DNA of 64,000 nucleotides from an uncultured Pseudomonadota bacterium (GCA_949290785.1 CASETE010000011.1:5893-69892), one strand, 5' to 3'. Positions 14,186 through 33,017 are shown, counted from the first letter of the stretch. Program-made: numbers and translations. Notes: generated from the letters alone by a model not told the origin.

Positions 14186-14232
14186 GTGTTTTATTTTGTA
14201 TGATAAAGCCGTCTATTGACGGCTTTTTATGT
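14186..14232 (+). promoter_or_regulatory. Candidate pheST attenuator: mini-ORF GTG-TTT-TAT-TTT-GTA-TGA (fMFYFV) whose stop abuts an intrinsic terminator (AAAGCCGTC-TATTG-ACGGCTTT + T5) 15 nt before the pheS ATG
   Basis: Hairpin plus T run lies between rplT and pheS, the position of the E. coli pheM leader/attenuator. The ORF-track start at 14176 would place this terminator inside coding sequence, so the pheS start is taken as 14248 (SD AAGGTGG). Confidence 0.35.
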
Positions 14233-22600: not shown

Positions 22601-22711
22601 TTTAGTTTGATTTAAAGACTTGTGAAAGGTGTCATCACTTCTCCAGAAAGTCAGCATTTCTTGTTCCAGTTTTGGGAAATCGGCTTTTGGTTCTGTTTTT
22701 GGGTATGCCAT
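19676..22711 (-). CDS. ileS: Isoleucine--tRNA ligase (long ~1011 aa form)
   Basis: Class I aaRS with HxGH-type (PHWGH) and KMSKS motifs; editing and anticodon-binding regions. Confidence 0.9.
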   Translation of the reverse strand: MAYPKTEPKADFPKLEQEMLTFWRSDDTFHKSLNQTKLGHPFSFYDGPPFANNLPHWGHLGVSAVKDMVGRYQTMLGKHVVRELGWDCHGLPAEASAEKKQGRQAKDIVATDGIAAFCDMCRNDVLTYSNEWLKFIERIGRWVDGGDEKGYRTMDKNYMESVIWAMKELHNKGLLYKDYRVNPFDWKLGTVLSNSEASSEYQDVVDDAITVWFELENGDRVLAWTTTPWTLPANSALAVNPNMNYLRMQDEDGSVYVIAETRLSAYEKQFAATKKIGELKGSELVGKKYRPLFDYYSNDETGLLYQIIPAEYVSDSDGTGIVHIAPAYGEDDFWAAKNIDPRFPVLLNVDDYGNFTNEVKDWAGENIFVANPKIIQHLRDNGHLVKKEQYKHSYPYGPRSKEKLIYRATDSWYIDVPKIREKLIENTKNYTKWTSAGDRFLSWIEGARPWSVSRNRFWGTPLPIWEKDGQYKIFGSISEMEEFFGVEIHDLHRPTLDALTKDGWKRITDVLDCWVESGSMPFASLHYPFENADKFEATFPADYIIEGQDQTRGWFYSLMVLATALFDKPAFKTVSVNGMVVDDNKKKMSKSLGNFVNPEEQIEKYGADAVRLFILGSNFLKAEPVGIDIEGKVFTESTKTILTPLWNAYHFFTLYANAGNITAQEKTDSENVLDKYILAELNELVSVVSTALNEYKPDVAIKEFVRFLDVLNNWYIRRGRARFWDEEQDAFDTLYYVLINLCRTLAPFAPFISDYIYKNLTGTESVHLQSFPVAQEYDHKIVEDMRRVQSIVSVGKQLREQYKLRNRLPLSKMTVAGTDLTEYADIIKDELNIKEIQFTDDISGVADSFVYLITPKIGARLGGALKEIIPAVKRGEYEMSDAKLKVGQYTLNSDEFEKRLTVKQGVTGCALPDNTAVIVLDTEINSELVAEGLANDALRFIQDTRKNAGMDVSDRIILEYNADPALANAIEQHRQHIMDEALITNMSRGDGKYNTEIEGYNLSISIKKHKG

Positions 22712-22735: not shown

Positions 22736-22822
22736 TTATAAAAAACGGGCGCCTATGCGCCCCAGCCACGTGCAGAAGCGCGGTGCCGAGTTATTTTATA
22801 ATAATTATGCTTGTTAATTTCA
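22736..22822 (-). promoter_or_regulatory. Candidate ileS leader-peptide attenuator: 10-codon ORF MKLTSIIIIK (22790-22822) followed by terminator GGGCGC-ATAG-GCGCCC + GTTTTTTA (22736-22761), 24 nt before the ileS ATG
   Basis: Read on the minus strand: ATG AAA TTA ACA AGC ATA ATT ATT ATA AAA TAA, then GC-rich hairpin and T run in the ileS orientation. Four consecutive Ile codons directly upstream of the Ile-tRNA synthetase gene. Confidence 0.45.
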
Positions 22823-22936
22823 TTGCTAGTGCAATTTTAGTATAGAAAAATATAAAATGCTAGTTTTTTTTATAAAAAAGTTGAAATTTGTTTATTTTTA
22901 TGGTGTAATATTCCCCGCTAAAAAAGGATTTAGAAG

Positions 22937-26518: not shown

Positions 26519-27394
26519 TTATATCTCCAATTTTTTAGATGTCATGTCAGTACATATGCGTCCGGTAAGCCCTGTTAAAACAGCGCCTGGTCCGACTTCA
26601 ATTGTTTCAGTTATACCAAGTTCATGCATTTTTAAAACAGATTCACGCCAACGAACGCCATGCGTAATTTGATATACCAACGCCTCTTTTATTTCTGCAG
26701 CGTCGCTCATTGGCGCTGCTGTTTTATTAGCAATCAGAACGGCTTTTGGTGCTTTTATTTCAATGTTTTCCAATGCTGCGCGCATTTCTTCTGCGGCCGG
26801 TGCTTGGATTCTACAATGAACAGGTACAGACAAGGCAAGCGGCATAGCACGCTTTGCGCCTGCTTCTTTTGCCAGTGCCATAGTTGATTCTACAACATCT
26901 TTTGCGCCAGATATAACGACCTGACCTGGACTGTTGTCATTTGCAACGTCGCAATCTGTTTGTGTGCAAATTTCACGAATTTTTTCAATATCTAAACCAA
27001 GAACAACCGCAGTCAGTCCTTCGCCAACTGGCACCGCGCGTTGCATTGCGTCCCCGCGCAAACGAAGTAGTCTGGCTGTATCTGCCAAGGATAATGCGCC
27101 CGCTGCACATAAAGCGGTATATTCACCCAAAGAGTGCCCCGCAACATATTCAGTAAGAGGCACACCACTTGCCCGCAACATAGCAATAGACATAGCCATA
27201 ATCGCCGGTTGAACATTCGTCGTCAGTGTTAAATCTTCCATTGGACCGTTAAAGATAATATCAGATAATTTTTGATTTAACGCATCATCAACTTCATCAA
27301 ACACAGCGCGTGCCGCAGGGTTATTTTCGTATAAATCTTTTCCCATACCAACGGCTTGCGAGCCTTGCCCAGGGAAAACCAAAATAGATGACAT
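26519..27394 (-). CDS. fabD: Malonyl CoA-ACP transacylase
   Basis: VFPGQGSQ and GHSLGEYTA active-site motifs; 291 aa. Confidence 0.9.
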   Translation of the reverse strand: MSSILVFPGQGSQAVGMGKDLYENNPAARAVFDEVDDALNQKLSDIIFNGPMEDLTLTTNVQPAIMAMSIAMLRASGVPLTEYVAGHSLGEYTALCAAGALSLADTARLLRLRGDAMQRAVPVGEGLTAVVLGLDIEKIREICTQTDCDVANDNSPGQVVISGAKDVVESTMALAKEAGAKRAMPLALSVPVHCRIQAPAAEEMRAALENIEIKAPKAVLIANKTAAPMSDAAEIKEALVYQITHGVRWRESVLKMHELGITETIEVGPGAVLTGLTGRICTDMTSKKLEI

Positions 27395-27424
27395 ATTTAC
27401 ACCTTTGTTCAGTTCATATCCGAA

Positions 27425-27955
27425 TTATACTTTGCGCACAGAGAATTCGCAACCGCAATAATTCTGACGATAAAAATTAGAATTTCTGCCAATTTCTTGA
27501 CGTAATTTTTCATCCCACTTGATTGGTATATAGGAAATATCTCCTAAAGAGCACTGTGCAGCACGGTCAACTTGTGATTGGTCTTTGTGTCGTGATACAC
27601 CAAATACAGATGCGACCGCGTCATATCCATTTTCTTTTGCCCAACGTCGTGCAAATTCAAATCTGAATTCAAAGCAACGACTGCAACGTGCACCTCGCTC
27701 TGGTTCGGCTTCTAAACCACGTACTGCACCGCGCCAGTCTTCGTGATTGTAATTTCCAACAGCGTATTTAACGCCCAAAGATTCGCAATATTTTATTTGC
27801 TCGTTCAGGCGTTTTGTATATTCTGCAGCGGGAAAAATGTTCGGGTTAAAGAACAACACAACAAAGTCATCAACGTCAGGTATTTCGCCGTCCGCTAATT
27901 GCTTTATTGCACCCGCACTGCAAGGTGCACAACAAGACATCAGAACCAGTTTCAT
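27425..27955 (-). CDS. queH: Epoxyqueuosine reductase QueH (DUF208)
   Basis: Conserved CCAPCS and C-terminal NYCGCEFS motifs. ATG overlaps the metG stop (ATGA), suggesting translational coupling. Confidence 0.75.
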   Translation of the reverse strand: MKLVLMSCCAPCSAGAIKQLADGEIPDVDDFVVLFFNPNIFPAAEYTKRLNEQIKYCESLGVKYAVGNYNHEDWRGAVRGLEAEPERGARCSRCFEFRFEFARRWAKENGYDAVASVFGVSRHKDQSQVDRAAQCSLGDISYIPIKWDEKLRQEIGRNSNFYRQNYCGCEFSVRKV

Positions 27956-29955
27956 TTTATTTCCCAAATACTGCCTATTTTTGCATCACTATCCAGTTCT
28001 ATTATTTCATCTGCGTTATTGCCCTGTCCCAGTTCTGCGGCACTGCACATCATACCGAAAGACTCAGTTCCTGCAATTGTGCGCTGGGATATAGGCTTTT
28101 TCATTGTCGGCAGCACGCAACCAACAGGTGCCAATATGCCAATTAACCCAACACGAACATTTGGCGCGCCACATACAATTTGTAAATTATGATTTGTACC
28201 GTCATCAACTGTTAAAAGATGCAAGTCATCACGTGATGGATGATTTTTTACTTCGATTATTTTAGCAACAACAGGTTTAACATTGTTGTCTTCTTTTTTA
28301 GCATATTTTTCAGTCAACTCTGCAACGCGCGCATCATCAATTCTGGAAAATAAGTTTTCTGGAACTGTGAAAGCTTCGCCATTTTGAATTCTGCGTTCAA
28401 ATTCTTTTGGCCAAGACAGGTCGTGCGTGTTGTTAAATACACGCTGTATTTTTTCTGCAGCATCTGGAATAAACGGTGCGGAAACGCGCGCATACAAGTC
28501 TATCAGTTGAAAGCATTCGTTTAGTACTGCACCCGCTTGCCCGGCGTTTCCATTTTTCACAAGCGCCCACGGTTCTTTAACAGTCATATATTCGTTACCA
28601 ATTGCATACAACGAACGCAACGCAACAACAGCCACACGGAATTCGCATGCGTCCAGCGCAGCAGTAAGTTCTGCAATTTTTTCGTTTACTTGCGCAGTTA
28701 AAGAAGCATCTAATTCGCCTGCATTTGGAACGGTTAGTCCAAAATTTTTATCAGTCAGTTTGCAAACGCGCGAAACAAAGTTACCCAACATACCGTTTAG
28801 GTCTTTATTGACGATGTCCGCAAAGCGCGCAAAAGTAAAGTCTGTATCGTCTGTTTCTGGTGCGGATGCAATCAGCGCATAACGCCAAGCGTCAGCAGGT
28901 GCAATGCTGACTGCTTCGTCCAAGAACACACCGCGCTTTTCAGATTTAGAAAACTTACCGCCTTCAAAATTCAGGAAGTTCATCGCTTTTAACTGGTCAA
29001 CAGTTTTCCAGTTGTCGTTCATCGCCAGTTGCTGTTCAGGGAATAAAACCGCATGGAACTTAACATTATCCTTGCCCATAAATTGTGCATAATGACAATC
29101 AGGATTTTTCCACCATGTTTCCCAGTCTTTATTTGCAGCCTGCGATATAGAAACATAACCCCAAGGTGCATCAAACCAAACATAGAAAACTTTATTTTCG
29201 TACCCTTCTTTATTTACAGGAATACCCCATGACAAATCACGTGTAATAGAATAGTCCAACAGACCGATTTTCTGCCAACCGTATGCGATACTTTTTGCAG
29301 TTTTTGACCAACCACTTGAATGAGTAGTCAACCAATCGTCCCAAAGCTTTTGCGCCTTTGATGCTAAAAAGAACAGATTTTTTGTTGGGCGTAGTTCAAT
29401 ATTACTGCTGCCAGATATTGTGCTGCGTGGGTTTAAAAGTTCTGTTGCTTCATATGTCGCACTGCACTTATCACATTGGTCGCCACGTGCCTTATCATAA
29501 CCGCACTTTGGGCAGGTTCCAACTAACTGACGGTCTGCCAAGAACATGTTATCATCAACAGAGAAAGGTTGCAGTGTTTCACGTTCTTCAATCAATCCCA
29601 GCTCATCAAGACGAGAAAATAAATCTTGGACTAATTTTTCCTGCAATTCTGTATGTGTACGTCCATAAATATCAAAAGATAAGTTAAAATTACGAACCGC
29701 ACGTAAATGTTTTTCGTAATATTTATTAGAATAATCAAAAGGCGACATATTTTCTTTCATAGCACCGACAACAACAGGTGTACCATGTTCGTCTGCCCCG
29801 CAAACATATAATACATCACGTCCGCATGCGCGACAAAAGCGGGCATATATATCCGAAGGCAACCAGCACCCGATAAGGTGCCCCAAGTGCAATTCGCCAT
29901 TAACATATGGCAATGCAGAAGTAATAAGATATTTTTGTTTATTGTCAGTTGTCAT
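27952..29955 (-). CDS. metG: Methionine--tRNA ligase with C-terminal EMAP/Trbp111-like tRNA-binding domain
   Basis: PYVNGELHLGHL (HIGH) and KFSKS (KMSKS) motifs; Zn knuckle CPKCG..CDKC. Start at MTTDNKQ (29955); the ORF-track TTG extension would run through the terminator hairpin. Confidence 0.9.
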   Translation of the reverse strand: MTTDNKQKYLITSALPYVNGELHLGHLIGCWLPSDIYARFCRACGRDVLYVCGADEHGTPVVVGAMKENMSPFDYSNKYYEKHLRAVRNFNLSFDIYGRTHTELQEKLVQDLFSRLDELGLIEERETLQPFSVDDNMFLADRQLVGTCPKCGYDKARGDQCDKCSATYEATELLNPRSTISGSSNIELRPTKNLFFLASKAQKLWDDWLTTHSSGWSKTAKSIAYGWQKIGLLDYSITRDLSWGIPVNKEGYENKVFYVWFDAPWGYVSISQAANKDWETWWKNPDCHYAQFMGKDNVKFHAVLFPEQQLAMNDNWKTVDQLKAMNFLNFEGGKFSKSEKRGVFLDEAVSIAPADAWRYALIASAPETDDTDFTFARFADIVNKDLNGMLGNFVSRVCKLTDKNFGLTVPNAGELDASLTAQVNEKIAELTAALDACEFRVAVVALRSLYAIGNEYMTVKEPWALVKNGNAGQAGAVLNECFQLIDLYARVSAPFIPDAAEKIQRVFNNTHDLSWPKEFERRIQNGEAFTVPENLFSRIDDARVAELTEKYAKKEDNNVKPVVAKIIEVKNHPSRDDLHLLTVDDGTNHNLQIVCGAPNVRVGLIGILAPVGCVLPTMKKPISQRTIAGTESFGMMCSAAELGQGNNADEIIELDSDAKIGSIWEIK

Positions 29956-29977
29956 ATTTACGCCTTTGTTATTTAAT

Positions 29978-30050
29978 AAAAAGGTGCCCAACGGGGCACC
30001 CAGGAATCCCGTCAGAAATTTTAGTAAGATTAATTGTACATTCGCATCAT
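29978..30050 (-). promoter_or_regulatory. Candidate metG leader-peptide attenuator: ORF MMRMYN (30030-30050) then terminator GGTGCCC-CGTT-GGGCACC + T5 (29978-30000), ~27 nt before the metG ATG. An alternative ACGGG:CCCGT pairing could act as an antiterminator
   Basis: Minus strand reads ATG ATG CGA ATG TAC AAT TAA (3 Met codons of 6), 29 nt spacer, perfect 7 bp GC hairpin, T run, metG. Lies between tRNA-Val(GAC) and metG. Confidence 0.45.
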
Positions 30051-30071
30051 TTCTTTTCTTGTTTTTTATAA

Positions 30072-30148
30072 TGGTGGGTGGTATTGGACTCGAACCAACG
30101 ACCTTTACGATGTCAACGTAACGCTCTAACCAACTGAGCTAACCACCC
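30072..30148 (-). tRNA. tRNA-Val (anticodon GAC)
   Basis: GGGTGGTTAGCTCAGTTGGTTAGAGCGTTACGTTGACATCGTAAAGGTCGTTGGTTCGAGTCCAATACCACCCACCA; perfect 7 bp acceptor stem; encoded CCA. Confidence 0.85.
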
Positions 30149-30162
30149 GATATTTTTCGGTG

Positions 30163-30237
30163 CTATGTCCAGAAAGCCAACGACCTTTACGATGTCAACG
30201 TACGCGGCTGACCAACTGAGCTAACCACCCGATAGAC
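30163..30237 (-). pseudogene. Truncated/degenerate duplicate of tRNA-Val(GAC): 5' acceptor strand, mutated D arm, anticodon arm, variable loop; no T arm or 3' acceptor
   Basis: About 52 nt nearly identical to positions 1-52 of the adjacent tRNA (..CCAACGACCTTTACGATGTCAACGTA..CCAACTGAGCTAACCACCCGA) with the D stem disrupted (CGCGGCTGACC for ACGCTCTAACC). Confidence 0.6.
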
Positions 30238-30308
30238 TTTAAACTTTCAGGATTATACCAAAGAAAAATACGATTGCAATATCAAAAAGCAGCATTTATA
30301 ATATATAC

Positions 30309-30483
30309 CGCAACAGGTGTTCTGTTGTTGGGCTTACAAACCCATTCAATCAGCGTCAGCGATGGCGAAAAATATCTCCAACTAATTGGTTGGAGTGGTC
30401 TGAATATATTGAATAAGACCGCAATTTCTGATTGAATTGTTTGTAAACTCCAACCACCTGAATTTTCCGGTGGTTTTTTGTTT
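30309..30483 (+). ncRNA. Structured sRNA, copy 1 (~175 nt), with own promoter TTGCAA-17-TATAAT (30274-30302) and terminator AACCACC-N10-GGTGGTT-T6
   Basis: Predicted helices: CAACAG/CUGUUG 5' hairpin; long-range UUACAAAC/GUUUGUAA; AUUCAAUCAG/CUGAUUGAAU; CUCCAAC-UAAUU-GGUUGGAG hairpin; GGUCU-(GAAUAUAUUGAAUAA)-AGACC hairpin; terminator. Confidence 0.5.
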
Positions 30484-30552
30484 AACGCAAGGGAGTAAAA
30501 AGCGCCAGAAAAAATAATTTGATATGTGATTTATGGGTGGTTATAATACATA

Positions 30553-30722
30553 CCGCAACAGGTGTTCTGTTGTTGGGCTTACAAACCTAGTGAACGCGCT
30601 TGGTTATCAGGCGAAAATCCAACCAATTGGTTGGAGTGTGCCGAATATATTGAATAAGGCACGCAATTCGTTCAATTGTTTGTAAACTCCAACCACCTGA
30701 ATTTTCCGGTGGTTTTTTGTTT
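30553..30722 (+). ncRNA. Structured sRNA, copy 2, promoter TTGATA-17-TATAAT (30519-30547), same terminator
   Basis: Same architecture as copy 1. The loop-closing stem changes GGUCU/AGACC to GUGCC/GGCAC (compensatory) with the identical loop GAAUAUAUUGAAUAA. Confidence 0.5.
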
Positions 30723-30791
30723 AACGTAAAGGAGTAAAAAGCACCAGAAAAAATAATTTGATATATGGTTTATGGGTGGATATAATATGTA

Positions 30792-30966
30792 CTGCAACAG
30801 GTGTTCTGTTGCTGGGATTCACAACCTATTGTCAAGCGTCCGCAGGGACGAAAAAAACTCCAACCCCTGGTTGGAGGGACTTTAAATATATTGAATAAAA
30901 GTCGCAATTCTTGACAATTGTTGTGAACCTCCAACCACCTGAAATTTCTGGTGGTTTTATTTTTGA
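30792..30966 (+). ncRNA. Structured sRNA, copy 3, promoter TTGATA-17-TATAAT (30758-30786), terminator CCACC-UGAAAUUUC-UGGUGG-U4AU5
   Basis: Long-range helix changes UUACAAAC/GUUUGUAA to UUCACAAC/GUUGUGAA (three compensatory pairs). Inner helix changes to UAUUGUCAAG/CUUGACAAU. Loop stem becomes GACUU/AAGUC. Confidence 0.5.
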
Positions 30967-30980
30967 ATATCGGGGGTAAA

Positions 30981-31169
30981 ATGACACTGGGTAATGAAAT
31001 AGAACAAATCCGACAAAAATGTAATATGCCGTTATTTATTGCATATTCTATATTTGATACCGATGAAAAAGGTTATCATCAAATTGTGATTGGTCGACAA
31101 AAACCCACAGTTTTTCAATTAATAATGTTTATTGATTCCACCCACCACCCAATGAAGTGTATAGAATAA
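30981..31169 (+). CDS. Small XRE/Cro-like helix-turn-helix protein (62 aa), tentative
   Basis: ATG 9 nt after RBS GGGGGTAAA, directly after the copy-3 terminator. LGNEIEQIRQKCNM...YHQIVIGRQKPTVFQLIMFIDS loosely fits the HTH_3 pattern (LG.rIr.lR...G...IS.IE.G.r.P....L.kIa.aL). Confidence 0.35.
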   Translation: MTLGNEIEQIRQKCNMPLFIAYSIFDTDEKGYHQIVIGRQKPTVFQLIMFIDSTHHPMKCIE

Positions 31170-31212
31170 AAACAGTTGTTATACACATACTATATTTTAT
31201 AATATTTAATAC

Positions 31213-31533
31213 ATGAAAGAATACAACTTTTGGGTATATATATTATTTAATGATCGTGCCAAGGCAACATATATCGGGGTTACAAATAATTTAGAACGCA
31301 GAATAATTGAACATAAAATGGGACTGGTACCTGGGTACACCAAACAGCACAATATTGACAAACTGGCTTACTTTGAACATTATCAATATATACACGATGC
31401 AATTGCACGCGAAAAGGCATTAAAAAAATGGAATCGTGCGTGGAAGTATAGATTAATAGAAACAATGAATCCTGAATGGAATGATTTGGCTGTTGGTTTG
31501 ACAGAATATATAAAAAATATGGTAAAAATTTAA
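31213..31533 (+). CDS. GIY-YIG nuclease superfamily protein (YhbQ/UPF0213-like stand-alone domain)
   Basis: YNFWVYILFNDRAKATYIGVTNNLERRIIEHK ... REKALKKWNRAWKYRLIETMNPEWNDL matches the GIY-YIG core and the C-terminal KKW.R.WK..LI...NP.W.DL signature; 106 aa. Confidence 0.7.
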   Translation: MKEYNFWVYILFNDRAKATYIGVTNNLERRIIEHKMGLVPGYTKQHNIDKLAYFEHYQYIHDAIAREKALKKWNRAWKYRLIETMNPEWNDLAVGLTEYIKNMVKI

Positions 31534-31623
31534 ACATTGTTTTTCTAATATATTATCTTATTTGTCATTCCCGCGTCCGTGGGTCAAAAAACTAATGTTT
31601 TTATTGGGTGATAATGCGTGTTT

Positions 31624-31758
31624 TGTCATTCCCGCGCAGGCGGGAATATGGTCTATTAAATTTATATCGCAGATTTCAGATTAATGAAAAAAACATAGAT
31701 ATATATAATTAATTAAATAATTATTTTAGTCCCTATTCCCGCCTGCGCGGGAATGACA
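31624..31758. mobile_element. MITE-like element, 135 bp, with perfect 24 bp terminal inverted repeats TGTCATTCCCGCGCAGGCGGGAAT (each containing ATTCCC-N8-GGGAAT) flanking an 87 bp AT-rich core; a third degenerate half-site at 31562-31586
   Basis: Left repeat 31624-31647 is the exact reverse complement of right repeat 31735-31758. GC-rich palindromic ends in an AT-rich intergenic region between the GIY-YIG gene and mreB. Confidence 0.5.
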
Positions 31759-31814
31759 GATAGAGGGGAATTTTCAAAATATAATATATCTGTTTGCGGT
31801 AATAACAAATAATA

Positions 31815-31843
31815 CAAAAAAACACCGGCATTTGCCGGCATTT
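31815..31843. terminator. Intrinsic terminator for mreB (A7-CACCGGCA-TT-TGCCGG-CATTTTT), same family as other terminators in the window
   Basis: Hairpin plus T run in the minus orientation directly after the mreB stop. Confidence 0.5.
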
Positions 31844-32941
<1,098 letters not shown>

Positions 32942-33017
32942 TTAAAAAATCAAGACATCGTGTATTTAATTTATGTTTTTTATTTGATTATCTTTATATT
33001 TTGTTATTATAAGCAGA

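Follow-up and report, generated by a model that had tools for sequence, protein, structure and literature searches.

A candidate ribosome-dependent attenuator with a methionine-codon mini-ORF in the metG leader of uncultured gut Alphaproteobacteria

The metG leader in the window

We analysed a stretch of 64,000 nucleotides (nt) from an uncultured Pseudomonadota bacterium (GCA_949290785.1, CASETE010000011.1:5893-69892; GC content ~39%), which as a whole is called the window here and whose positions are counted from its first letter. On the minus strand metG, encoding methionyl-tRNA synthetase (MetRS), is preceded by a sigma-70-type promoter, tRNA-Val(GAC), an A-rich stretch, a mini open reading frame (mini-ORF) with the peptide MMRMYN, an A/U-rich spacer and a hairpin followed by a U-run (Table 1). 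A sequence-only reading of the window had proposed this arrangement as a candidate attenuator, and the mini-ORF, the hairpin with its T-run, the 27 nt from the stem end to the metG ATG and tRNA-Val(GAC) all lie on the minus strand exactly where it had placed them. Comparative genomics supports the candidate assignment, and we consider it reasonably probable that the metG 5' leader is a cis-acting, ribosome-dependent (leader-peptide) transcription attenuator sensing Met-tRNA. The terminator, the conservation and co-occurrence of the parts and the coding-type constraints on the ORF are direct observations, while Met-tRNA is the presumed signal and the direction of the response is deduced from the arrangement of the parts.

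The hairpin, GGGTGCCC-CGTT-GGGCACCT at the DNA level, has a stem of seven Watson-Crick pairs and one G-T pair, six of the pairs being GC, and was the top terminator-like site in a scan of 2.5 kb (8 pairs, 6 GC). Its apex segment CCCGUUGG consists of the loop together with the upper part of either arm. A promoter scan identified TTGCAA-16-TATAAT as the sole good promoter on the minus strand upstream of tRNA-Val and metG; the promoter sequence ATTGCAAT…TTTCTTTGnTATAAT recurs 5' of tRNA-Val in relatives, most of which keep the tRNA-Val(GAC)-to-metG gene order. In the window lineage tRNA-Val(GAC) is co-transcribed with the metG leader. Between the hairpin and metG, where a promoter had been named beforehand as an argument against attenuation, the promoter scan revealed nothing promoter-like, and reading of the 27 nt by eye no acceptable -10/-35 pair.

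The module is exclusively associated with metG

The comparative set comprised 80 loci from species-representative genomes of Candidatus Enterousia and related uncultured gut Alphaproteobacteria with MetRS identities of 72-97%; identical MetRS is present on gut-metagenome contigs. We found the module consisting of the mini-ORF, the antiterminator motif and the terminator 5' of metG in 52/80 species. In ten species tRNA-Val precedes metG but the module is missing, nine of them showing just a plain hairpin and U-run within a tRNA-Val-to-metG spacer of 55-61 nt, and in about 16/80 species, again without the module, a conserved TTGATT-16-TATAAT promoter drives metG directly. The mini-ORF and ACGGG…CCCGU always occur together, both being present in the 52 species and either one alone in none; two regex matches without the ORF among the relatives lie in unrelated hairpins and were rejected as chance. 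The module is retained at MetRS identities of 57-68% to the window's enzyme (L091, L094, L115, L116, L117). The sequence-only reading had set conservation of the Met mini-ORF in related genomes as its touchstone, and the mini-ORF indeed persists in 52 of the 80 relatives, down to ~57% MetG identity and under coding-type constraints.

In a separate pattern scan of metagenome contigs 27/28 matches were located immediately upstream of metG, the 28th being a featureless, GC-rich chance match. The pattern ACGGG-N(5-20)-CCCGTTGG occurs once in the window and in none of 100 shuffles. Nothing points to a regulon, the motif being single in the window and all 27 real metagenome matches residing at metG. 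Judged by this comparative support, the element is real and not a product of chance.

Three loci (L054, L099, L102) show the module with a dedicated promoter upstream and no adjoining tRNA gene. In these, TTGATT-16-TATAAT is followed by exactly 7 variable nt and then ATGCGAATG, a spacing at which transcription is predicted to begin with the A of the AUG, which would make the mini-ORF leaderless. In such own-promoter lineages the promoter serves a single gene, and the terminator separates the two. For L054 RNAfold gives a hairpin of 10 bp followed by U7, though the terminator scan did not flag it.

These data bear directly on the explanation that the hairpin is a plain terminator of tRNA-Val, in which case metG would depend on constitutive leakage or on a promoter that escaped notice, and the mini-ORF would be incidental. 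The nine species with tRNA-Val, a plain hairpin with U-run and metG at 55-61 nt spacing, but no mini-ORF, speak for such an explanation, leaky read-through from the tRNA promoter being evidently enough there; moreover, shuffled sequence folds as well as the single leader (z = -0.24, an ordinary value), and therefore the single sequence proves little. Against this stand the strict co-occurrence of mini-ORF, antiterminator strand and apex in 52 species, the exclusive association with metG, the module's position between a dedicated promoter and metG in L054, L099 and L102 and the lack of anything promoter-like behind the hairpin. We regard a plain tRNA-Val terminator as very improbable, the comparative data having already largely refuted it.

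Table 1. Features of the metG leader and of further elements mentioned in the text. Positions refer to the window, except for the sister-clade loci.
Feature	Position	Strand	Basis or detail
Sigma-70-type promoter TTGCAA-16-TATAAT, TG upstream of -10	30252-30279	minus	10/12 matches
tRNA-Val(GAC), CCA encoded	30072-30148	minus	ARAGORN; Rfam tRNA, 71.4 bits
A-rich stretch, 21 nt	between tRNA-Val(GAC) and mini-ORF	minus	
Mini-ORF ATG ATG CGA ATG TAC AAT TAA (MMRMYN, stop)	30030-30050	minus	read from sequence
Mini-ORF conserved core AUG-CGA-AUG-NNN-NNN-UAA	starts 30047	minus	69 distinct modules
CGA (rare Arg codon), then AUG as proposed sensor codon	30039-30044	minus	invariant, 69/69
Candidate region 1, UAAUCUU: stop in UAA-U context plus UCUU	30026-30032	minus	
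A/U-rich spacer	between mini-ORF and CUGACGGGAUUC	minus	
Region 2, CUGACGGGAUUC: antiterminator 5' strand CUGACGGG (30015-30008) plus conserved AUUC	30004-30015	minus	
Region 3, CCCGUUGG: terminator apex and antiterminator 3' strand	29988-29995	minus	
Intrinsic terminator, stem GGGUGCCC/GGGCACCU, loop CGUU, U5 run	29978-30001	minus	hairpin DNA 30001-29982, T-run TTTTT 29982-29978
metG Shine-Dalgarno AAAGG	29963-29967	minus	AAGG, AGGG or GGGG at equal distance in relatives
metG, MetRS of 667 amino acids with C-terminal tRNA-binding domain	27952-29955	minus	ATG at 29955; Pfam tRNA-synt_1g, Anticodon_3, tRNA_bind
Degenerate tRNA-Val-like copy	30158-30230	minus	
Two terminator-like hairpins, common stem CTCCAACC/GGTTGGAG	30376-30395; 30858-30876	minus	
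Inverted GTCATTCCCGCGCAGGCGGGAAT-type repeats	31608-31770		
mreB	31844-32926		
ileS leader ORF ATG AAA TTA ACA AGC ATA ATT ATT ATA AAA TAA (MKLTSIIIIK, stop)	22823-22791	minus	leader span 22740-22823
ileS leader hairpin GGGCGC-ATAG-GCGCCC, then G and six T	22762-22747	minus	ileS ATG at 22711
pheS leader span: mini-ORF GTG TTT TAT TTT GTA TGA (fM-F-Y-F-V, stop) plus terminator	14186-14226	plus	between rplT stop (14172) and pheS ATG (14248)
pheS terminator AAAGCCGTC-TATT-GACGGCTTT and T-run	14205-14226	plus	one nt after mini-ORF
Sister-clade leader ORFs	L112 1379-1432; L113 1381-1434; L114 1370-1423		peptides MTCDYGFFAVFMMRAGA, MSYSIYSFSTRMMRSCA or MTYKLFIFSGRMMRGRA, each followed by a stop

Further elements accompany the locus. 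metG is followed by queH, fabD, fabG and mnmG. Between the promoter and the genuine tRNA-Val(GAC) lies the degenerate tRNA-Val-like copy, which has AGCCGCG in its D arm and TTTCTGGACATAGCACC replacing the T arm and the 3' strand of the acceptor, is called neither by ARAGORN nor by Rfam and is missing from the near-identical strain L001. These altered segments recur in front of tRNA-Val in further species (at least 12, with two occurrences in L005), and the copy gives the impression of a conserved element derived from a tRNA, not of a random pseudogene. In some species (L015, L016, L021, L026, L037, L055, L057, L082 and others) GC-rich inserts of 40-110 nt, such as CCCTTCGCGAAACGCTTCGGGTGGCAAGCCACC… and CAAATTTTCACCGCAGCGTC…GCCGGACAA, are situated between tRNA-Val and the module; they resemble small repeated structured elements. 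Two terminator-like hairpins with a common stem sit between mreB and the tRNA-Val promoter. A pair of inverted repeats around ~100 nt of AT-rich DNA, with sub-threshold Rfam matches to WsnRNA46 of Wolbachia and FtrB of Francisella, probably represents a palindromic element of the REP or MITE kind.

Coding-type constraints and alternative pairings

The alignment of 69 distinct module sequences reveals a frame that invariably (69/69) consists of AUG, none or one additional codon (AUG, AAA or AUA) and CGA-AUG-NNN-NNN-UAA, with M, MM, MK and MI as N-terminal variants and changes in length by whole codons only. The earlier count of three AUG codons holds within the window's clade; across species just the start AUG and the AUG after CGA are kept, the third being clade-limited. 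A second AUG occurs in 18/69 modules and the single post-CGA AUG is invariant, amounting to fewer codons than in classical runs. Codons 4 and 5 are variable (Tyr, His, Gln or Lys, then Asn, Lys or Ile) and in distant relatives wholly different (MKRMKI, stop), with frame and length being retained. In codon 4 an initial T goes with C or T at the third position (31/31 cases) and an initial C or A mostly with A or G (31/38), so that TAA and TAG are avoided. Every frame ends in UAA with U as the next base, which from work in E. coli is the most efficient termination context, and the stop is followed by TCTT in 56/69 and by TTTT in 10/69 modules. A GG-containing motif resembling a Shine-Dalgarno (SD) sequence precedes the mini-ORF in 27/50 species, mostly 10-11 nt before the AUG, compared to just 3/50 species in the A/U-rich spacer used as control. 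From these coding-type constraints we infer that the mini-ORF is translated.

CGA represents 4.1% of the Arg codons in 33 ORFs of the window, in which CGA-ATG is used in 0/15 Arg-Met pairs, yet CGA is never replaced in the mini-ORF. The invariant CGA could serve as an intentionally slow codon in front of the sensor AUG.

A sister clade (L112-L114, MetRS 58-61% identical) has an ORF of 17 codons after tRNA-Val and before metG, which ends in (R/F)-M-M-R-x-x-A and the stop. The AUG-AUG-CGC of this ORF makes up the 5' side of a GC hairpin, AUGCGC-N4-GCGCAU, and a pyrimidine-rich stretch after the hairpin could pair with the metG SD sequence. Met codons before metG thus recur in two architectures.

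The same alignment can be read differently, namely with the ORF being an untranslated RNA motif at which a trans-acting factor (MetRS, a tRNA or a metabolite) selects between antiterminator and terminator in the manner of RAT/BglG systems, T-boxes or riboswitches. In agreement with this, no synonymous codon ever replaces CGA, AUGCGAAUG may form a UGC-GAAU-GYA hairpin, ACGGGAUUC and CCCGUUGG are invariant in sequence as binding sites often are, and the antiterminator is weak compared to the terminator and might need stabilising. A motif acting as RNA alone, however, accounts poorly for indels that occur in frame only, for the avoidance of stops, for a UAA invariant at a fixed distance, for codons 4-5 being free to vary, for SD-like motifs or a promoter at the distance expected for a leaderless AUG and for the long Met-containing ORF of the sister clade. 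Neither do the known RNA classes fit. Rfam cmscan at E <= 10 over positions 27000-33000 returned no T-box, SAM or leader family and tRNA as the sole family in the leader region; at gathering score the leaders of 12 relatives likewise gave tRNA only, and a PreQ1 match (E = 2.9) overlapping the tRNA 3' end was discarded as chance. We rejected a T-box or anticodon mimic, as neither a CAU triplet nor a conserved UGGN bulge is present in the leader, and a SAM or other metabolite riboswitch, as there is neither an Rfam match nor a multi-helix conserved aptamer, the conserved helices being too few. An untranslated motif is in our view distinctly unlikely.

Covariation strongly supports the terminator: 98.2% of the alignment cells are paired, 5/7 pairs show compensatory changes and 0/500 shuffles were as good. 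The apex CCCGUUGG is invariant in 68/69 modules and unconserved in the nine species that lack the mini-ORF and have just a plain hairpin. The sequence-only reading had suggested that ACGGG might pair with CCCGU of the left terminator arm to act as antiterminator. This pairing is present, extends to 8 pairs (CUGACGGG with CCCGUUGG), co-occurs perfectly with the mini-ORF and is recovered by RNAalifold, which gives RACGGG:CCCGUU after removal of the terminator 3' arm from the alignment. The helix is 98.6% paired versus 33-65% in slid controls, and variation in its 5' strand is nearly confined to Y-Y-R, i.e. to the bases pairing with the invariant U-G-G (exceptions are A at the first position in 6/69 modules and A at the second in 1/69). 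Truncated transcripts fold as the antiterminator, and the consensus fold contains only the terminator or the antiterminator plus a 3-bp hairpin, AUGCGAAUG being able to form the small hairpin UGC-GAAU-GYA. In all modules 12-16 nt separate the stop codon from the antiterminator strand.

For an anti-antiterminator formed by regions 1 and 2 (1:2) the best candidate is AAUCUU(G):(C)GGGAUU, which is 86% paired versus 29-57% in slid controls. The other 1:2 candidates, GAAU:AUUC, a local AAUUY…GGGAUU hairpin and GGAAU:AUUCC involving the SD region, were rejected for lack of covariation; several 1:2 candidates are disrupted in GGGAAUC variants. One clade has an extra 7-bp helix, UGCAGAA:UUCUGUG, joining codons 3-5 to the sequence after GGGA. 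An extension of the terminator by A-tract and U-tract, an H-type pseudoknot of the antiterminator with the lower stem and a geometry based on collision of ribosome and polymerase were dropped by hand as unsupported or sterically implausible.

Proposed mechanism and relation to known attenuators

According to the model we favour, transcription would start at the tRNA-Val promoter, or in some lineages at a dedicated promoter yielding a leaderless mini-ORF, and the transcript would cross the ORF of 5-6 codons encoding M-(M/K/I)-R-M-x-x, in which the second residue may be absent. When Met-tRNA(Met) is scarce, the ribosome, its P site occupied by the rare and slowly decoded CGA, would wait at the invariant AUG in its A site, and its footprint would reach the 3' end of the mini-ORF and the stop region (UAAUCUU, region 1) and keep region 1 off region 2. 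The free YYRACGGG could then pair with CCCGUUGG as the apex leaves RNA polymerase, and the resulting 8-bp helix would prevent nucleation of the terminator hairpin, allowing the polymerase to read into metG and to produce more metG mRNA. With plentiful Met-tRNA the mini-ORF would be completed and the ribosome released at the strong UAA-U stop; region 1 could thereafter pair with (C)GGGAUU, the more stable terminator would win and most transcripts would end after the leader.

Several observations weigh against this model. With respect to translation, the window's clade has no GG-type SD sequence before the ORF, only a purine-rich stretch, which is absent in the close strain L001, whose upstream sequence is quite different. 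Only one elongator Met codon is universally conserved, two being found in some clades, and the invariant CGA could equally reflect a constraint at the RNA level, e.g. the small UGC-GAAU-GYA hairpin. With respect to the switch, the antiterminator is backed by conservation; its two strands hardly vary, and double-sided changes are therefore absent. In the full-length transcript the terminator-containing fold is on average 6.2 kcal/mol better, the antiterminator coming within 1 kcal/mol of it in only 8/69 modules, and the antiterminator captures just the terminator apex, leaving the lower left arm free as a toehold. The stop lies 12-16 nt from region 2, so that a terminating ribosome cannot mask it, and among the candidate pairings across modules no conserved stable 1:2 helix was found: AAUCUU(G):(C)GGGAUU is AU-/GU-rich and weak, shows no covariation and is broken in some species.

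The geometry also leaves room for a translated mini-ORF that controls the terminator through a different signal or in a different direction, i.e. by the supply of fMet-tRNAfMet for initiation, by general translation status or by a ribosome at the stop codon unmasking YYRACGGG. MetRS also supplies fMet-tRNAfMet, and at the AUG predicted to lie leaderless at the transcript 5' end initiation depends directly on the initiator tRNA. A ribosome at the stop covers the conserved UAAUCUU exactly, whereas one at the internal AUG merely reaches it; the gap of 12-16 nt is strictly maintained, and the naked truncated RNA defaults to the antiterminator. Read-through caused by translation, however, would impose a positive feedback on MetRS that is presumably unstable physiologically, and neither the invariant AUG after CGA nor the late tandem AUG codons in the 17-codon ORF of the sister clade would be explained. 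We consider such a different signal or direction rather unlikely.

We tentatively put forward, with little confidence, that this might be the smallest known amino-acid-sensing leader, with five codons and a single sensor codon, which would read the output of MetRS twice, at the start AUG via fMet-tRNAfMet and at the internal AUG; the retained P-site CGA would slow A-site decoding and thereby sharpen the sensitivity to Met-tRNA, and the antiterminator would act by capture of the apical loop, not of a whole arm. If true, 5 codons, one of them a conserved sensor codon, would be enough for a sensor, and the leader is a natural test of whether a rare P-site CGA tunes A-site sensing. The ~70 distinct aligned sequences are enough to define a new cis-regulatory RNA family, and the module of ~75 nt is short enough for reuse as a synthetic Met-responsive switch.

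Two further synthetase genes of the window have leaders of a related kind. The ileS leader looks like a classical Ile-codon attenuator. The sequence-only reading had ascribed the same architecture to the ileS and metG leaders, which is correct for the general plan; the comparison revealed no common sequence motif, and neither sequence nor structure is shared. Downstream of rpmI-rplT a mini-ORF with terminator, reminiscent of E. coli pheM, precedes the pheST synthetase operon. Taking the ileS, pheS and metG leaders together, miniature cognate-codon leaders therefore look like a general form of synthetase control in this lineage, which suggests that in these gut Alphaproteobacteria with reduced genomes several synthetase genes are under miniature attenuators that depend on the ribosome, not under T-boxes or protein repressors.

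The nearest precedent is E. coli pheST, in which the leader ORF pheM, located between rplT and pheS, contains cognate codons and the terminator lies immediately in front of the synthetase gene. The 14 codons of pheM include a run of Phe codons, and its 1:2, 2:3 and 3:4 helices are clear. Unlike pheM, the metG ORF has 5-6 codons with one conserved sensor codon (two in some clades), its antiterminator takes the terminator apex only, no stable 1:2 helix is conserved and methionine is the presumed signal. PMC1262725 names the pheST attenuator as the gamma-proteobacterial precedent, and leader-peptide attenuators have further been predicted by comparative genomics for Streptomyces trpS and leuS (PMC1262725) and for hisS paralogues in Bacilli (PMC2965389). 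These share with the metG leader a cognate-codon peptide and a terminator, indicating that this kind of control recurs in unrelated phyla, but they concern other amino acids, have longer ORFs with codon runs, show no sequence relationship and in no case regulate metG.

The leaders trpL, hisL, leuL, thrL and ilvL follow the same plan, a translated leader ORF and mutually exclusive antiterminator and terminator between which a stalled ribosome decides. They differ from the metG leader in that their targets are biosynthetic operons rather than a synthetase gene, and the metG leader has no Rfam leader match; unlike in the trp leader, the terminating ribosome is too far (12-16 nt) to mask region 2. 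In Firmicutes most synthetase genes are controlled by T-boxes (PMC1262725), which resemble the metG leader in having terminator read-through before a synthetase gene upon uncharged cognate tRNA and an invariant antiterminator segment. The metG leader, in contrast, has no Stem I, no specifier loop and no T-box sequence, is with ~75 nt far too short, and its proposed sensor is the ribosome instead of direct tRNA binding. The part of a report on mycobacteria considered here describes leaderless polycysteine short ORFs as Cys-responsive attenuators of operonic gene expression (bioRxiv 10.1101/834739); as described there, these are similar to the metG mini-ORF in being very short, in carrying cognate codons and in possibly starting at the transcript 5' end, as predicted for L054, L099 and L102, while belonging to another phylum, sensing another amino acid and containing runs of Cys codons.

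Methionine is awkward to sense by codons because AUG is also the start codon. The methionine genes of other bacteria are under S-box (SAM) riboswitches (PMC1262725), and we found no earlier metG attenuator or leader-peptide attenuator based on methionine codons in the searchable literature or in Rfam, a missing case that the metG leader would fill. Its attenuator logic would fit the physiology of other synthetase controls, by analogy to pheST and the T-boxes. New here are the unusually small ORF, the single conserved sensor codon behind a rare codon, the antiterminator capturing the terminator apex and methionine as the presumed signal, whereas the principle itself is the known one of ribosome-dependent attenuation.

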